DNA of 64,000 nt from Leucoraja ocellata (lineage: Eukaryota), in contig JAWMAR010000115.1 in assembly GCA_036785375.1 (NCBI GenBank), positions 4,154,001 through 4,218,000 on the forward strand, written 5' to 3'. The position numbers were made by a program. Shown here piece by piece: positions 48,001 through 64,000 of this stretch. Positions within the stretch are counted from its first letter, which is position 1, and each line of letters begins with the position of its first letter.

Positions 48001-51000
48001 ATTTAGTTGCTGTACGGGCATGGAGGTGGAAGCAATCTATTCCTGTACACCAAGGCTTTGTTTTGTTCTGAGATGTACAGAAAAATATCAGAACGAAACT
48101 ATGCTTTCTTGTACATATAGAAAATTGACAGCATGGCAGCACCCATTGGGCTGGATGAGCCTTTTTCATGTCTGCATCCACAGCCAAGGTCAATGTTGGC
48201 TGGCATGGAGGCTACATTTTACCTGCTGGGTTGTTATATCAATTCAGAGTAGAATTCACAATCAACCACTCTGTATCAAGAGCTACATTATGGTGTGACT
48301 GGATATAGACACAGTAGTGACCTCATTTCACAGATTTAGTCTTTTTTTCTTTAAAAGTGTTTCACTGCCATGGTTGTAATTTAAATATATTTAAGCAAAA
48401 AACATGGTAGTGAAACACTTTTAAAGAAGTCTGCTTTTTGTTCATTTTTCCTATAAGAAACAGTAATATTTATTTTAATTCCTGCTTTAGTCAGTTTATT
48501 TTCATAATGAATAGCTTCATCGAAACTTATTATAGGAAGAGGTTTAGTAACTCTGATCTTCCATTTAGAATAAGGAAATAATTTAGCACATCACATTGTT
48601 TTCTTTATTTCAATGTGACATGTTGAACATACTGAGAAATCATACAATTGCAAAAAGGTTTTTTGGCACTGGGTTTACATTATAAATTATTTGTTTCATT
48701 CTTACAGAAAAAAAGACTAAATCTGTGAAATGAGGTCACAACTGCGCAGCAACATACCAGCTACTTTGAAGTTACATTTTTTTTTCCTTCTATTTCCATC
48801 AGTTTTCACCCAAAGTAAGTGTTTTATTTTAACCAGTCAAAATCATATTGTTTTGTTTTATCATTATGTTTAATTAATTTATACACCTGTACTGAGAAAG
48901 CAACTTGGACTTTATTTCTTTATCTCTGCTCTGTTAAATGTCTTAGAAGAACACCACAAGCTAAAACAACTTGCATCTCCATGAAACAAAACGTAGGTAC
49001 TCAGCGGGTCAGTTAGCATTTGAACATGTTGAAAATCTAGCGGCTACCAAAAAGATGCTATGACTCTTTGGGCGACGGAGGAGACTACTCACGACCATAC
49101 AGGCGACACCCTGGTGGCCATGTGGCGACAGCTTAGTCGCCTGTAGTCGTCTAAAAAATAGCCTATGTGGGACAGGCCCTTTACACTTCCACATCTGTGT
49201 CTCCATCTCCGCTGACTCTCAGTCTGAGAAGGATTTCAACCCGAAACGTCACCAATTCCCTCTATCCAGAGATGCTTCCTGTCCCGCTGAGTTACTCCAG
49301 CATTTTGTGTCTATACCAGTATAAACCAGCGTCTGCAGCTCCTTCCCACACAATTAACAGTTAGATACAGGTGAGAGGGGTTTGATTGGTAGATGTATGG
49401 AGTAAGTGATAATGCTTAAAGGTGAAAAGTAGACAAAAGGGTGTCAAATAAAGAGAGAAGCGGAGTGAAATGTCAAGTTGGAGGGAAGGATATTTGCTCA
49501 AGATTCCAACATCTGCAGTTTCATTTTTGTATCTATCTCTTTGTTCATCAACACCATTCCCCACTATGCCTATTAATGAATGGTTTTCCATTGATCCTAC
49601 TGATAATGAAGTTTCATAGTGAAAACAGGATGCTCATTTCAGAATTACATTGAGAACACATCTTGTATTCCACATTTCACTCTTGGGTTGTATGTGGAAT
49701 AGTTTAAAATGTAACCTTAAAATCAAGATTAGAAACTATTGAAATTATTGTTCTACTGCTCCCCAGTAATATAAAGCCTGCAGAGGAGGACTCTTGAGCA
49801 TAACACAAAATTCTGGAAGAATTCTCAATGGGTTATGCAGCATCTGGAGAGGGAATAAACAGACCACTTTTAGAGTCAAGATCACTCATCAGACTTCTTC
49901 TGTTTGAAGAAGGGTCCCGACCGAAAATTACATCTGCCCCTTCCCTCCTCAGATGCTGCCGGACCCCCTGAGTTTCTCCAGCATAATAATAACTATGGGA
50001 TTAAGAAGTTGCTATTACACGTTAAAATGTTTCCATCATTCCTCTTTCTAACAGGAAATCCAAATCATTTTTATTTTTTGGATAAGAAAGGTGACTTTCT
50101 GTTAAAAGGTCCAGGTGGTTTTGGAAATGGCCGCGTGGTCTGGGAATGGAAACCACACACAGAGCAGGAAGTTCAGCTGCTTGGGACATTCCACAATGGG
50201 GGTTGGACCTGGTGGAACGCACAGTGGAAGGATGACAGCAACTTGTACCAAAAGATTGAACGGGATCCTGAAAACATCGACCTGAGAATTAGAAACCCTG
50301 CATTTCAAGTTGCAGGGTTGTTTACCTTGACTCAAACACAGCCGAGCAAGAAAATTCTAAAGCAGTATGAAATATTTGGGATCAAAGGTGAGTGGCAAAA
50401 TTCTTTGGGATCATATGGGTCTCATTAAGTAATTTGATTTTTAAAGATGGGATCGGCAGAGGGATTGGTGAGGGATTGGTCTGAAGAAGGTTCCCTATCT
50501 GAAACGTTGTCAGTCCATTTTCTTCCACAGGTTATCCCTGACCCATTTAATTCGTGTAGAACATTGATTTTTGCTTTATGATTCTTATATTGTCTATTAT
50601 AGAGTAGATTGGTTATCAGTGTTATCAGAGGAAAGATTTTGGACTCAAAGTTCTGTATCACTAATTTAAATCATTTGTACCTCAAAGCATTATAAGAGCA
50701 AGAGTAGGCTCTTTGGCCTTTTGCTCCTGCTTCACCATTCATTGTGATCTTGCTTGATCTACTACCTCAGCACCATTTTTCTAAACTATCCATTGATTCC
50801 CTCATATGCAGAAATCTATTTATCTCTGGTTTTAATGAACTCAATAATCAATGCCACTTTGGGTAGAGAATTGCAAAGATTTAAGTCTCTCTGCGCTACA
50901 GAAATTTCTCCTCATCTTAGCCCCGAAGAGCTCACCTGATTCCTGAATTGAGCATTCTTACAGGGAAAGCAGCCTCCATGCATCCATATTGTCTCGAAAA

Positions 51001-63000: not shown

Positions 63001-64000
63001 CCAAACATGATGCCAGGACCAAGTCTTATCTGTCTGCACATTATCCATATACCTCCATTCTCTGCATATCCATTCCCCACGTATCCATATGCCTTTCCAA
63101 AAGTGGCCAATATCATATCTGCCTCAACCACAGCCCCCACCGGGTGCATTCCAGGCACTCACCACCCTCTGTGTGAAATAACTTGACCCGCACATCCTGC
63201 CCCACTCGCTTCAAAGCTATGCCCTCTAGCAGTTGATTTTTCCATCCTGGGACAAAGGTTTTGACTGTCTACCCAAATCATGCCACTCATAATTTTATAG
63301 ATTTTGGTCAGGTCTCTCCACAGCCTCCAATGTTCCAGAGAAAGCAATCTGGTCTGTCCAACCTCGACCTGTAACTGATATCCCCTAATCCAGGCATCAT
63401 TATGGTAAATCTCATCTGCCCAGAATGAATGATAGAAATATTTAATTGCTGAACATTATTGGGAGTGAAACTGAAAATAACAAATTTGTCCTTCACAGTG
63501 AGACTACTTGCGAACATTTGGATCATCATAGTTTCAAGCTACTTGTTTCTTAAACTGATCGTTGCTTTTGGATTAATTTGCTGCTTGAAGGGGATAAAAA
63601 GAAGAAACAATTCTTGAAGTTTTCCGGAATGCCAAGGTGCCATTGACTTTGGCAAAGTGGATGTTCATTAATTAGATCATTTTGTATACAATTCAGAATT
63701 TAAAGGGATTATTACTGCTTGACACAAGGATACAATTGTTCAAAATTATGTGACATATTCTTCAACATTCAAACAGCTGTAATTTCTCTGCTCCCACTTT
63801 CACTGAAGGAATTATAGAGTTCATGTAGGACCATGGCTAACGACTAAACAATGCTCAAGACAAGAGCCCAATGTTGCTACATTTTCCACTGACCGTCACA
63901 AATATTTATTTTGGAGATTCGTAACTTCAGCGACGTCAGAATTCAATCTTTGTTTGTTTGTGAAAGTATTATCAGAAAAATTACTGGAAATATTACTGTG

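Follow-up and report, generated by a model that had tools for sequence, protein, structure and literature searches.

CD4 and LAG-3 have two to four Ig domains in their described members, are normally single-copy, and are defined by a tail motif encoded on a separate tail exon, Cx(C/H) in CD4 and (F/Y)xxL(D/E) in LAG-3 (PMC10768021). The fusion of a V domain to a C2 domain with no linker, through one continuous strand, is rare and typical of these two receptors (PMC10768021). Cartilaginous fish were first thought to be CD4-less, in the account of PMC3964593; one CD4 and one LAG-3 have since been demonstrated in them (PMC10768021). KIR2DS, LILRA, TREM, SIRP-beta, NITR and LITR resemble the protein described here in having a short tail and a basic membrane residue, with ITIM paralogues of similar ectodomain, but their Ig domain types are unrelated to its own. 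To our knowledge, none of these families is built on four-domain rods of CD4 type or extends to 8-16 domains. A central membrane lysine is linked to DAP12. G6fL is the thrombocyte collagen receptor of teleosts, related to the MHC-encoded G6F. It is described in PMC3528668 as having four extracellular Ig-like domains, one membrane span and a YxN tail, with the fish ITAM split over two exons, and the same source gives YxN, a Grb2 motif, as defining G6F and G6f-like. DICPs are described in bioRxiv 10.1101/2021.06.11.448072 with ectodomains of D1-D2 or D1a-D2a-D1b-D2b, and with ITIM, charged-span and secreted forms.

The window, which is the whole stretch of 64,000 nucleotides of Leucoraja ocellata DNA that was analysed, quite probably holds one intact activating-type gene of a modular jawed-fish receptor family that has a CD4/LAG-3-type rod and ITIM-tailed relatives.

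Gene model, product and sawfish ortholog

The gene lies at 48730-63617 on the + strand and has ten exons, with all nine introns GT...AG and all junctions in phase 1. The exon lengths add up to 2628 nt, which is 875 codons and the stop, and the split codons at the nine junctions are all sense (R, V, G, V, G, V, D, V, L). Junctions and split codons thus bear out an earlier reading of this DNA made from the sequence alone, the sequence-only reading, in its claim of ten GT-AG phase-1 exons and 875 uninterrupted codons. All comparisons with the window sequence were made exon by exon, and 875 is the sum of the exons. Identities in the list are to the sawfish protein XP_051869512.1 (P0006; 875 aa, "uncharacterized", LOC127569165) unless another protein is named.

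Exon 1, 48730-48814, + strand: leader; ATG and 28-codon leader MRSQLRSNIPATLKLHFFFLLFPSVFTQ, ending in phase 1, donor AAA/gtaagt; 68% identity to residues 1-28.
Exon 2, 50055-50387, + strand: D1, V-type Ig domain without cysteines, 111 codons, phase 1-1; 80% identity to residues 32-138.
Exon 3, 52650-52919, + strand: D2, C2-type Ig domain with the canonical Cys pair, F strand FVC, not WxC; Pfam Ig_3 at 1e-6; 79% identity to residues 141-229.
Exon 4, 55145-55480, + strand: D3, V-type Ig domain with Cys pair; weak Pfam V-set match (0.024); 78% identity to residues 231-341.
Exon 5, 55559-55819, + strand: D4, C2-type Ig domain with WRC in the F strand, preceded by a 78-bp intron; 66% identity to residues 343-428.
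Exon 6, 57993-58337, + strand: D5, second copy of the cysteine-free V-type domain; 82% identity to residues 431-543, and 89% to the skate ITIM-type protein P0024.
Exon 7, 58917-59189, + strand: D6, C2-type domain that keeps the B-strand Cys and has W in place of the F-strand Cys (LYTWEV), a substitution found also in XP_051869512.1 and in skate proteins.
Exon 8, 60090-60428, + strand: D7, V-type Ig domain with Cys pair; Pfam V-set at 2.1e-10; 77% identity to residues 636-746.
Exon 9, 61907-62173, + strand: D8, C2-type Ig domain with WIC in the F strand; Pfam ig at 1.5e-6; 71% identity to residues 749-835.
Exon 10, 63499-63617, + strand: short stalk, membrane span with central Lys (…SSYLFLKLIVAFGL…) and tail KGIKRRNNS, with TGA at 63615-63617; 74% identity to the C-terminus.

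The start ATG has A at -3 and an upstream in-frame stop 4 codons away. By our own reading of the sequence, exon 10 has no good splice donor ahead of its stop; the window stops 383 bases past the TGA, leaving room for an alternative downstream terminal exon beyond it.

The product is a type I membrane glycoprotein in which a leader and eight Ig-like domains precede a span with a mid-membrane lysine and a motif-less tail. The membrane span, IWIIIVSSYLFLKLIVAFGLICCL, has its lysine at position 13 of 24. The cytoplasmic tail, encoded on the same exon, has 9 residues, and in KGIKRRNNS there is no tyrosine, no YxN, no ITAM and no signalling motif. The sequence-only reading had described a leader, 8 Ig domains, a TM of activating type and a tail of about 10 aa free of the CD4/LAG-3 motifs, and in all of these respects it was right, the span having a central lysine and the tail 9 residues.

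A V-C2-V-C2 block occurs twice, as D1-D4 and as D5-D8, and the copies share 49-56% identity, with D1 against D5 and D3 against D7 both at 49%. Cysteines are absent from D1 and D5, and the domains of the window protein hold at most the canonical Cys pair. WxC is found only in D4 (WRC) and D8 (WIC), D2 having FVC and D6 no F-strand cysteine. Pfam, run on the ten exon translations, matches 6 of the 8 domain exons to generic Ig families (D2, D4, D6 and D8 to Ig_3/ig), has no match for the D1 or D5 exons, and finds the CD4-specific PF05790 and PF09191 in none of the ten at E<=1. The D1 exon modelled with an alignment (AF2) gives a confident beta-sandwich, pLDDT 87.4, and the best solved matches by Foldseek are the IgV domains of MPZ, 2B4 and CAR at TM about 0.7.

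The ten exons tile in order onto the sawfish protein, each domain scoring best at its own position, so that D1, for instance, falls from its 80% to 47% on the D5-type copy, and the residue is identical at 7 of the 9 junctions. Against annotated proteins of other species, the exons have 66-90% identity, and the domain exons score E 1e-35 to 1e-70, far beyond chance. On these alignments the window gene is the ortholog of sawfish LOC127569165. The sequence-only reading knew of no description of the architecture, though it allowed for one; we too found no paper on it, and databases already contain the product as an "uncharacterized protein".

In the 48.7 kb upstream of the gene there are retroelements, with no recognisable gene and no family exon. 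Pfam gave no support to the weak Ig-like matches that tblastn placed at 28005-28280 (E 0.2) and at 30908-30732 (E 0.027). A search of the window for a second TM or leader exon inside the gene, or for further family exons, found none, and Tandem Repeats Finder at a score of at least 100 found nothing in the whole window.

A modular family of jawed fishes

More than 140 annotated "uncharacterized" proteins, from more than 20 shark, ray and skate species, share the four-domain block, and the family has relatives in chimaera, sturgeon, paddlefish, bichir and eel. This is a large, uncharacterised modular family of jawed fishes. The window gene is hence not the distinct receptor type of cartilaginous fish that had been proposed from the sequence, but one member of a large family with eight domains as the commonest full-length layout, and sturgeon, paddlefish, bichir and eel have the family as well.

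The four-domain profile has 144 matches, with names and domains taken from the best 120 of 144. With the D3/D7 profile, 95 proteins score E<=1e-3, every one of them elasmobranch, and the D1/D5 profile finds 39 representatives among 1.84 billion; 4 of those 39 were set aside as non-members, coming from a snail, a Clostridiales MAG, an unnamed ENA record and (weakly) a loach. With sturgeon P0119 as the query there are 9 proteins, all from sturgeon, paddlefish or bichir, and 0 of the 9 have an informative name. Domain counts across the family are 2, 4, 8, 12 or about 16, in strings of abcd, abcdabcd, abcdabcdabcd, bcd(abcd)x3, or cd alone, and eight domains form the commonest full-length layout (28 of the 95 D3/D7-profile matches). 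The D2-type domain reads LYxC across the family.

By the criteria of our script, tails among the 95 comprise 46 of ITIM type (…IHYGSI…VIYAQI…), 16 of K type (GYLxVKL), 6 with a TM and no ITIM, and 27 with no recognisable membrane span. The ITIM-type members, which are the ITIM-bearing paralogues that the sequence-only reading had predicted, have no charge in the membrane span, and their tails, some 120 residues long, contain two ITIMs. Members with the lysine-bearing motif are found in sharks, in rays and in sturgeon, and the relatives in sturgeon, paddlefish and bichir have all four domain types and tails ending in YxN motifs. Exon 10 matches K-type family members only, with no ITIM-type protein matched in that search. 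The ectodomains do not divide in this manner: window D5-D7 are 84-90% identical to skate ITIM-type proteins, and sawfish XP_051869512.1 is 69-70% identical along its length to P0012 and P0013, ITIM-type proteins of the same species. Similar ectodomains therefore stand on opposite modules, an ITIM tail or a charged span with a short tail, which is what marks paired receptors, and judged by sequence the family has the layout of paired inhibitory/activating receptors, with the window gene an apparent activating-type member. A recombination breakpoint, considered since D5-D7 are nearer to skate ITIM-type proteins than to the sawfish ortholog, was rejected because species distance confounds that comparison.

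Consecutive LOC numbers suggest tandem gene clusters, on one chromosome per species. Some members have been auto-named obscurin-like, VCAM-1-like, CEACAM5-like or CD276 homolog, and nurse-shark AGQ17915.1 is an 'obscurin-like protein'. A literature search found no paper describing the family.

Likeness to CD4 and LAG-3, and the alternatives

A four-domain K-type member, P0064, was modelled by AF2 with pLDDT 79.5 and pTM 0.71, and single predicted strands, 132-147 and 335-350, cross both of its V-to-C2 junctions. The junction sequences of the window protein are linker-less as in P0064 (…FGIK-V-EAS…, …ITVK-V-TAEPS…). Foldseek with the P0064 model against PDB puts LAG-3 and CD4 at ranks 1-7 and 10 with E from 5e-17 to 9e-14, the best other natural receptor being pIgR at 1.4e-13; TMq is 0.25-0.32 for LAG-3/CD4 and at most 0.20 for all others. 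The family profile finds human LAG-3 at 1.3e-10, at ranks 2-4 of 177,635 sequences behind CEA, in an alignment that spans the V-C2 boundary and places the family WxC on the LAG-3 D2 'PWGC'. The best single stretch of that profile is with LAG-3 (i-E 3.6e-4, vs 0.012 for CEA). Going by the model, the four-domain block appears to be a CD4/LAG-3-type rod, with V running straight into C2, and LAG-3/CD4 appear to be its nearest solved relatives, so the CD4/LAG-3 relationship suggested by the sequence-only reading gains support from ranks 1-7 and 10 and from the profile stretch. Of the hallmark it had cited, the V-C2-V-C2 order stands, but WxC is in one of the two C2 types (D4/D8). Common descent with CD4/LAG-3 is plausible.

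The points of likeness to CD4/LAG-3 are the V-C2-V-C2 order, present twice in the window protein, the predicted continuity of strand G of V into strand A of C2 in P0064, the fourth-domain F-strand WxC that aligns with the LAG-3 D2 WxC, and a glycine at the D2-D3 hinge junction. The points of difference are the eight domains, the cysteine-free first V domain and the lysine in the span, the lack of WxC in the D2-type domains, the lack of Cx(C/H), of (F/Y)xxL(D/E) and of a separate tail exon, and a many-copied family with true ITIM paralogues. Several points weigh against kinship. The D1 model alone matches generic IgV domains and not CD4, LAG-3/CD4 lead generic multi-Ig proteins in the Foldseek search by only 2-3 orders of magnitude, CD4 structures seen in training may have shaped the AF2 model, and sequence-level support is modest, with CEA scoring above LAG-3 when profile stretches are summed. 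Exon profiles built from two sequences matched only generic Ig proteins in PDB (pIgR, MXRA8, PD-L1, PD-1, CD276, NITR), apart from CD4 at E about 0.2, aligned to CD4 D1, and the D1/D5 profile matched nothing. CD4-specific Pfam families are in none of the family proteins listed (the 95, and the best 120 of 144). Atlas feature searches gave generic V-set clusters at a marginal 0.90-0.93, and a LAG3 fragment cluster at rank 14.

Were the CD4/LAG-3 likeness generic, the family could correspond, in cartilaginous and basal ray-finned fishes, to teleost G6F-like or to the DICPs, a reading that we regard as unlikely though deserving of serious attention. In both of these fish receptor families the ectodomain has two or four Ig domains (V-C2-like), the DICP forms as described in the preprint mirror the cd and abcd forms found here, and YxN tails are present in the sturgeon, paddlefish and bichir relatives. 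Among the structure neighbours of P0064 in the Atlas, 'g6f-like' clusters come first at TM 0.46, vs 0.39-0.42 for CD4 clusters, but these scores are below 0.5, none of the neighbours is a DICP-named cluster, and the likeness is drawn from descriptions and structure clusters, not from sequence alignment. The window protein has no YxN or ITAM; G6fL, as its source describes it, signals through its own cytoplasmic ITAM and YxN where the window protein has a membrane lysine, and has four Ig domains against eight. Compared by description, DICPs share multigene clusters, the paired ITIM/charged-span logic and a similar modular growth, but in that description the charged residue of bowfin DICPs is arginine rather than lysine, and most DICPs have extra DICP-specific cysteines that are absent from the window domains. 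G6F-like reportedly resembles CD4/LAG-3, as Ohashi is said to have found in 2010, and this rival may therefore be a refinement and not an alternative.

The window gene could also be a non-signalling or decaying member, whether a decoy, an adhesion molecule of the CEACAM/obscurin kind or an unexpressed young pseudogene, which we consider improbable. The lost D6 F-strand cysteine, the tail of just 9 residues, and the names obscurin-like, VCAM-1-like, CEACAM5-like and CD276 homolog on some members are in its favor, and CEACAM does have a cysteine-free N-terminal V followed by C2 domains, ITIM-bearing and activating members, the top summed profile match (CEA) and one auto-named namesake in the family. 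However, the CEA score is a sum of five weak stretches, the best of them weaker than that of LAG-3, CEACAM is not known to have the V-C2-V-C2 periodicity or WxC, and CEACAM entries are absent among the Foldseek ranks listed for P0064. The D6 substitution is common to sawfish and skates and is therefore old and tolerated, all ten exons are open with consensus splice sites throughout, and the buried lysine motif is kept from sharks to sturgeon.

It is very improbable that two separate four-domain genes, D1-D4 and D5-D8, have been wrongly joined. The two halves are a tandem duplicate, four-domain members are common in the family, and with the Ig exons all in phase 1-1 any subset would splice in frame. 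Against this, family proteins matched no TM, tail or leader exon in the 2173-bp D4-D5 intron, while the same search recovered the real membrane exon at 6.6e-9, and all that turned up in the intron at a permissive E<=10 was a leader match of 14 residues, no better than chance. The domain string is abcdabcd in the sawfish ortholog and in 27 other listed proteins, and the residue at the D4-D5 junction, G, is also that of XP_051869512.1. The exon-by-exon tiling onto an independent 875-aa sawfish model therefore argues for one gene, not two, and the single eight-Ig gene of the sequence-only reading is upheld by that exon order and by the shared junction residues.

That the gene is the true CD4 or LAG-3 of the species, an MHC class II co-receptor, is hardly credible, for while the best solved-structure matches are LAG-3 and CD4, WxC is in D4 and D8, and D1 is on a single exon as in shark CD4 and LAG-3 (PMC10768021), the tail test already fails with the defining tails and separate tail exon missing, there are eight domains and a charged membrane span, no CD4 or LAG-3 name is among the 95 proteins or the best 120 of 144, and the family has many copies per genome where CD4 and LAG-3 are normally single.

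Proposed mechanism and meaning

As an activating-type member of the family, the window protein would bind a putative ligand with its long ectodomain, and its membrane lysine would pair with an acidic residue in a DAP12- or FcR-gamma-like adaptor that carries an ITAM. Cross-linking by the ligand would then lead to leukocyte activation, opposing the paralogues whose ITIMs would recruit phosphatases. Adaptor pairing, which the sequence-only reading had also proposed, is putative for this protein, and so are cell type and ligand. A doubtful further conjecture is that CD4 and LAG-3 were drawn from an older stock of receptors, which survives as this family. Ancient jawed vertebrates would have had paired V-C2-V-C2 receptors with either ITIM or lysine span, of which LAG-3 would have retained an ITIM-like brake and CD4 would have given up adaptor signalling in favour of LCK, and members such as the eight-domain activating form might even now recognise MHC class II or ligands related to it.

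How CD4 and LAG-3 arose is an open question, for which the family would offer an outgroup and a candidate ancestral state, on the basis of its sharks-to-sturgeon age, the same rod-like four-domain block, and its ITIM/adaptor paired wiring. For annotation, it provides a rational name and a domain grammar for well over 100 proteins now labelled "uncharacterized", "obscurin-like" or "CD276 homolog". Sharks and rays, whose innate immune receptors are poorly known, would also gain a new set of probable receptors of this kind.

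A ten-exon receptor gene and its sawfish ortholog

The receptor gene lies at 48730-63617 on the + strand of the window in ten exons, with every intron beginning in GT and ending in AG, every exon junction in phase 1, and every internal exon a multiple of three in length. Together the exons make up 2628 nt, or 875 codons and a TGA stop, and the codons split at the nine junctions encode R, V, G, V, G, V, D, V and L, none of the nine being a stop. The window sequence was analysed exon by exon, and full-length comparisons rest on public database proteins. Exon 1 encodes a leader of 28 residues, exons 2-9 encode one Ig-like domain each (D1-D8, 86-114 residues), and the last exon encodes a short stalk, the 24-residue membrane span IWIIIVSSYLFLKLIVAFGLICCL, whose residue 13 is lysine, and the tail KGIKRRNNS. 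The second four domains (D5-D8) duplicate the first four (D1-D4) in tandem, with identities of 49% for D1/D5 (type a), 56% for D2/D6 (b), 49% for D3/D7 (c) and 56% for D4/D8 (d). The D3-D4 intron (55481-55558) is just 78 bp; its counterpart between D7 and D8 (60429-61906) is 1478 bp.

Pfam matches generic Ig families in 6 of the 8 domains, taking D7 to V-set at 2e-10, D3 weakly to V-set, and D2, D4, D6 and D8 to Ig_3/ig; the cysteine-free D1 and D5 have no Pfam match. Modelled from an alignment of family sequences, the D1 exon is predicted to be a confident nine-strand sandwich (pLDDT 87.4, pTM 0.82), which among solved structures is matched best by IgV domains, for example those of MPZ, 2B4 and CAR (TM 0.70-0.76). 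WxC is found in D4 (WRC) and D8 (WIC), with FVC at D2. The exon structure, Pfam, the D1 model and the WxC check thus confirm in all points the eight-Ig, ten-exon, 875-codon observation of the sequence-only reading. D6 (58917-59189) keeps the B-strand cysteine and has tryptophan in place of the F-strand cysteine (LYTWEV). Since the same substitution is found in the sawfish ortholog (P0006 residues 545-634) and in skate paralogues, the unpaired cysteine has long been tolerated.

As had been proposed, the interval is one eight-domain gene in the predicted model. The window exons have their best stretches in order along P0006 (XP_051869512.1, 'uncharacterized protein LOC127569165', Pristis pectinata), which is likewise 875 aa long. 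Identity is 66-82% in the domain exons, 68% in the leader exon and 74% in the last one, and each window domain is far closer to its own position in P0006 than to its duplicate copy. At the corresponding junctions P0006 has R, V, A, V, G, V, D, V and M, the same as in the window gene at 7 of 9. No membrane-span, tail or leader exon was found in the D4-D5 intron, and the domain string abcdabcd is present in 28 of the 95 proteins from a D3/D7 profile search. Because the window ends 383 bases past the receptor stop, an alternative exon may lie further downstream. The gene is already annotated in a related species, and the novelty is in the reading of the family.

Surroundings of the gene

Neither a recognisable cellular gene nor an exon of the family lies in the 48.7 kb upstream of the gene. 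The features of the window are as follows.

17238-22321, + strand: Ty3/gypsy (chromodomain) LTR retrotransposon with gag, protease, RT, RNase H, integrase and chromo domains
16112-17122, - strand: RNase H open frame of 337 codons (Pfam 1e-10), just upstream of the LTR element
647-940, 14196-14444 (- strand), 25830-26123, 32709-33011: interspersed repeat copies
38219-38527 (- strand), 49064-49324, 55923-56138, 61164-61394 (- strand): interspersed repeat copies
40894-41093: run of 200 N, an assembly gap or masked stretch
28005-28280, + strand: weak Ig-like match to D7 (tblastn E 0.2)
30732-30908, - strand: weak Ig-like match to D2 (tblastn E 0.027)

The Ty3/gypsy element has 262-bp direct repeats (17238-17499 and 22060-22321) that are 95% identical and an RT region split between two reading frames, and it accounts for the peak in GC content (57-61%) at 18-22 kb. 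The RNase H frame is probably a fragment of another retroelement. The interspersed repeat, whose translation includes …SRDAACPAELLQHFVSI…, has at least eight copies in the window, three of them within receptor-gene introns. The open frame at 27937-28344, overlapping the D7 match, gives nothing by Pfam, and both weak Ig-like matches are probably due to chance.

The receptor family and its two kinds of membrane span

Out of 1478 candidates, the D3/D7 profile retrieves its 95 proteins with a cut-off of E<=1e-3, and all belong to 20 genera of sharks, rays and skates. Almost all of them bear the label 'uncharacterized' or 'hypothetical'; two are called 'obscurin-like', four 'CD276 antigen homolog' and one 'VCAM-1-like', and none of the 95 carries CD4 or LAG-3 as its annotated name. 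The nurse shark protein P0040 (AGQ17915.1, 916 aa), which reads abcdabcd and whose membrane span is uncharged, was deposited directly under the name 'obscurin-like protein'; its source study was not found. A four-domain profile matches 144 proteins, 120 of them listed, and the D1/D5 profile has just 39 matches against 1.84 billion representatives, with chimaera, sturgeon and eel among them; four of the 39 were set aside as spurious or marginal. Shark and sturgeon members are collinear across four domains, membrane span and tail (E 4e-53 and 8e-63), and paddlefish and bichir also have members. Profiles of the four window domain types resolve the proteins into modular strings, namely cd, abcd, abcdabcd, abcdabcdabcd and bcd(abcd)x3, reaching 1720 aa. 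In each species, LOC numbers run consecutively on a single chromosome-sized contig, which suggests tandem clusters. No description of the family was found in the main texts of the papers searched, and the shark CD4/LAG-3 paper, PMC10768021, has no mention of it in the sections and under the terms searched.

By script criteria, 46 of the 95 proteins have an uncharged membrane span and an ITIM tail, typically …IHYGSI… and …VIYAQI…, so the ITIM-bearing paralogs that the sequence-only reading suggested looking for do exist. Another 16 have a lysine span (GYLxVKL) and no tyrosine motif (K-type), 6 have a span and no ITIM, and 27, partial or secreted, have no recognisable span. Among the 95, eight domains are combined with a lysine span only in P0006, along with the seven-domain model P0015; the remaining K-type proteins are built of either four domains or two. 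ITIM-type proteins of skates share 84-90% identity with window D5-D7, and within sawfish P0012 and P0013, both ITIM-type, match P0006 along its length at 69-70% identity. From sharks to sturgeon, the lysine is conserved within one and the same motif. In other sturgeon members the tail carries ITIMs as in sharks (P0172) or the span contains a lysine (P0173, P0174 and P0126), and P0119, P0170 and P0175, from sturgeon, paddlefish and bichir, have four domains, uncharged spans and YxN endings, …IYDNVENIYENC or …NIYENV.

K-type tails of sharks and skates are longer, at about 35-45 residues, lack tyrosine and end in a conserved …LQTLNSD(T/P)DL… (P0049, P0053, P0054, P0058, P0061, P0064, P0079, P0091, P0094 and P0095); the window gene and its sawfish ortholog terminate before this motif.

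Relation to CD4 and LAG-3, and a possible signalling role

The proposed kinship with CD4 and LAG-3 stands in part. The modelled representative is P0064, a four-domain K-type protein from catshark (alignment of 25 sequences; pLDDT 79.5, pTM 0.71). The model has a single predicted strand through each V-to-C2 junction (residues 132-147 and 335-350), a feature that passages of PMC10768021 describe as rare and typical of CD4/LAG-3. Foldseek, run with this model against 350,542 PDB chains, places mouse and human LAG-3 and human CD4 at ranks 1-7 and 10 (E 5e-17 to 9e-14); these alignments cover about 420 columns and have TMq 0.25-0.32. Among other natural receptors pIgR ranks best, at 1.4e-13 and TMq 0.19. 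When the family profile is compared with PDB sequences, the top match is CEA at 1.1e-13, a sum of five weak stretches, followed by human LAG-3 at 1.3e-10, mouse LAG-3 at 1.8e-8 and CD4 at 1.2e-6. The LAG-3 profile alignment (i-E 3.6e-4) runs from the end of a V domain through the entire following C2 domain and places the family WxC on 'PWGC' of LAG-3 D2.

Three points weigh against this likeness: the score margins are modest, the D1 model alone retrieves generic IgV domains, and single-exon profiles and Pfam yield nothing CD4-specific. Moreover, the CD4 tail motif Cx(C/H), the LAG-3 tail motif (F/Y)xxL(D/E) and the CD4/LAG-3 WxC of the D2-type domain are all missing from the window protein, and hence we do not file the gene as a CD4 or LAG-3 member, but regard it as a relative built from a block that works in the manner of CD4/LAG-3.

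Two other groups bear comparison. In the ESM Atlas, 'g6f-like' clusters are nearest to P0064 by predicted structure (TM 0.46), followed by CD4 clusters, a proximity that may serve as a lead only. Ohashi et al. reportedly noted in 2010 that G6F-like resembles CD4/LAG-3. YxN, the Grb2-binding signature of G6F and G6f-like, also ends the sturgeon, paddlefish and bichir relatives of the receptor family, and teleost G6f-like is presented in passages of PMC3528668 as a thrombocyte collagen receptor with four Ig-like domains and a tail carrying YxN and an ITAM. The DICPs of bony fish have two or four domains and ITIM, charged-span and secreted forms, according to passages of bioRxiv 10.1101/2021.06.11.448072; compared by description only, they share the family's logic of domain number and signalling forms.

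What is directly observed is the architecture, and the division of the family into members with ITIMs and members with a lysine span. Receptors that partner DAP12 typically have a central lysine, and the membrane lysine of the window protein would form an intramembrane pair with an acidic residue of a DAP12- or FcR-gamma-like ITAM adaptor. The general rule linking a charged span to an adaptor is stated for fish receptors in part of bioRxiv 10.1101/2021.06.11.448072. Through such an adaptor, the receptor would give an activating signal, balancing its ITIM paralogues.
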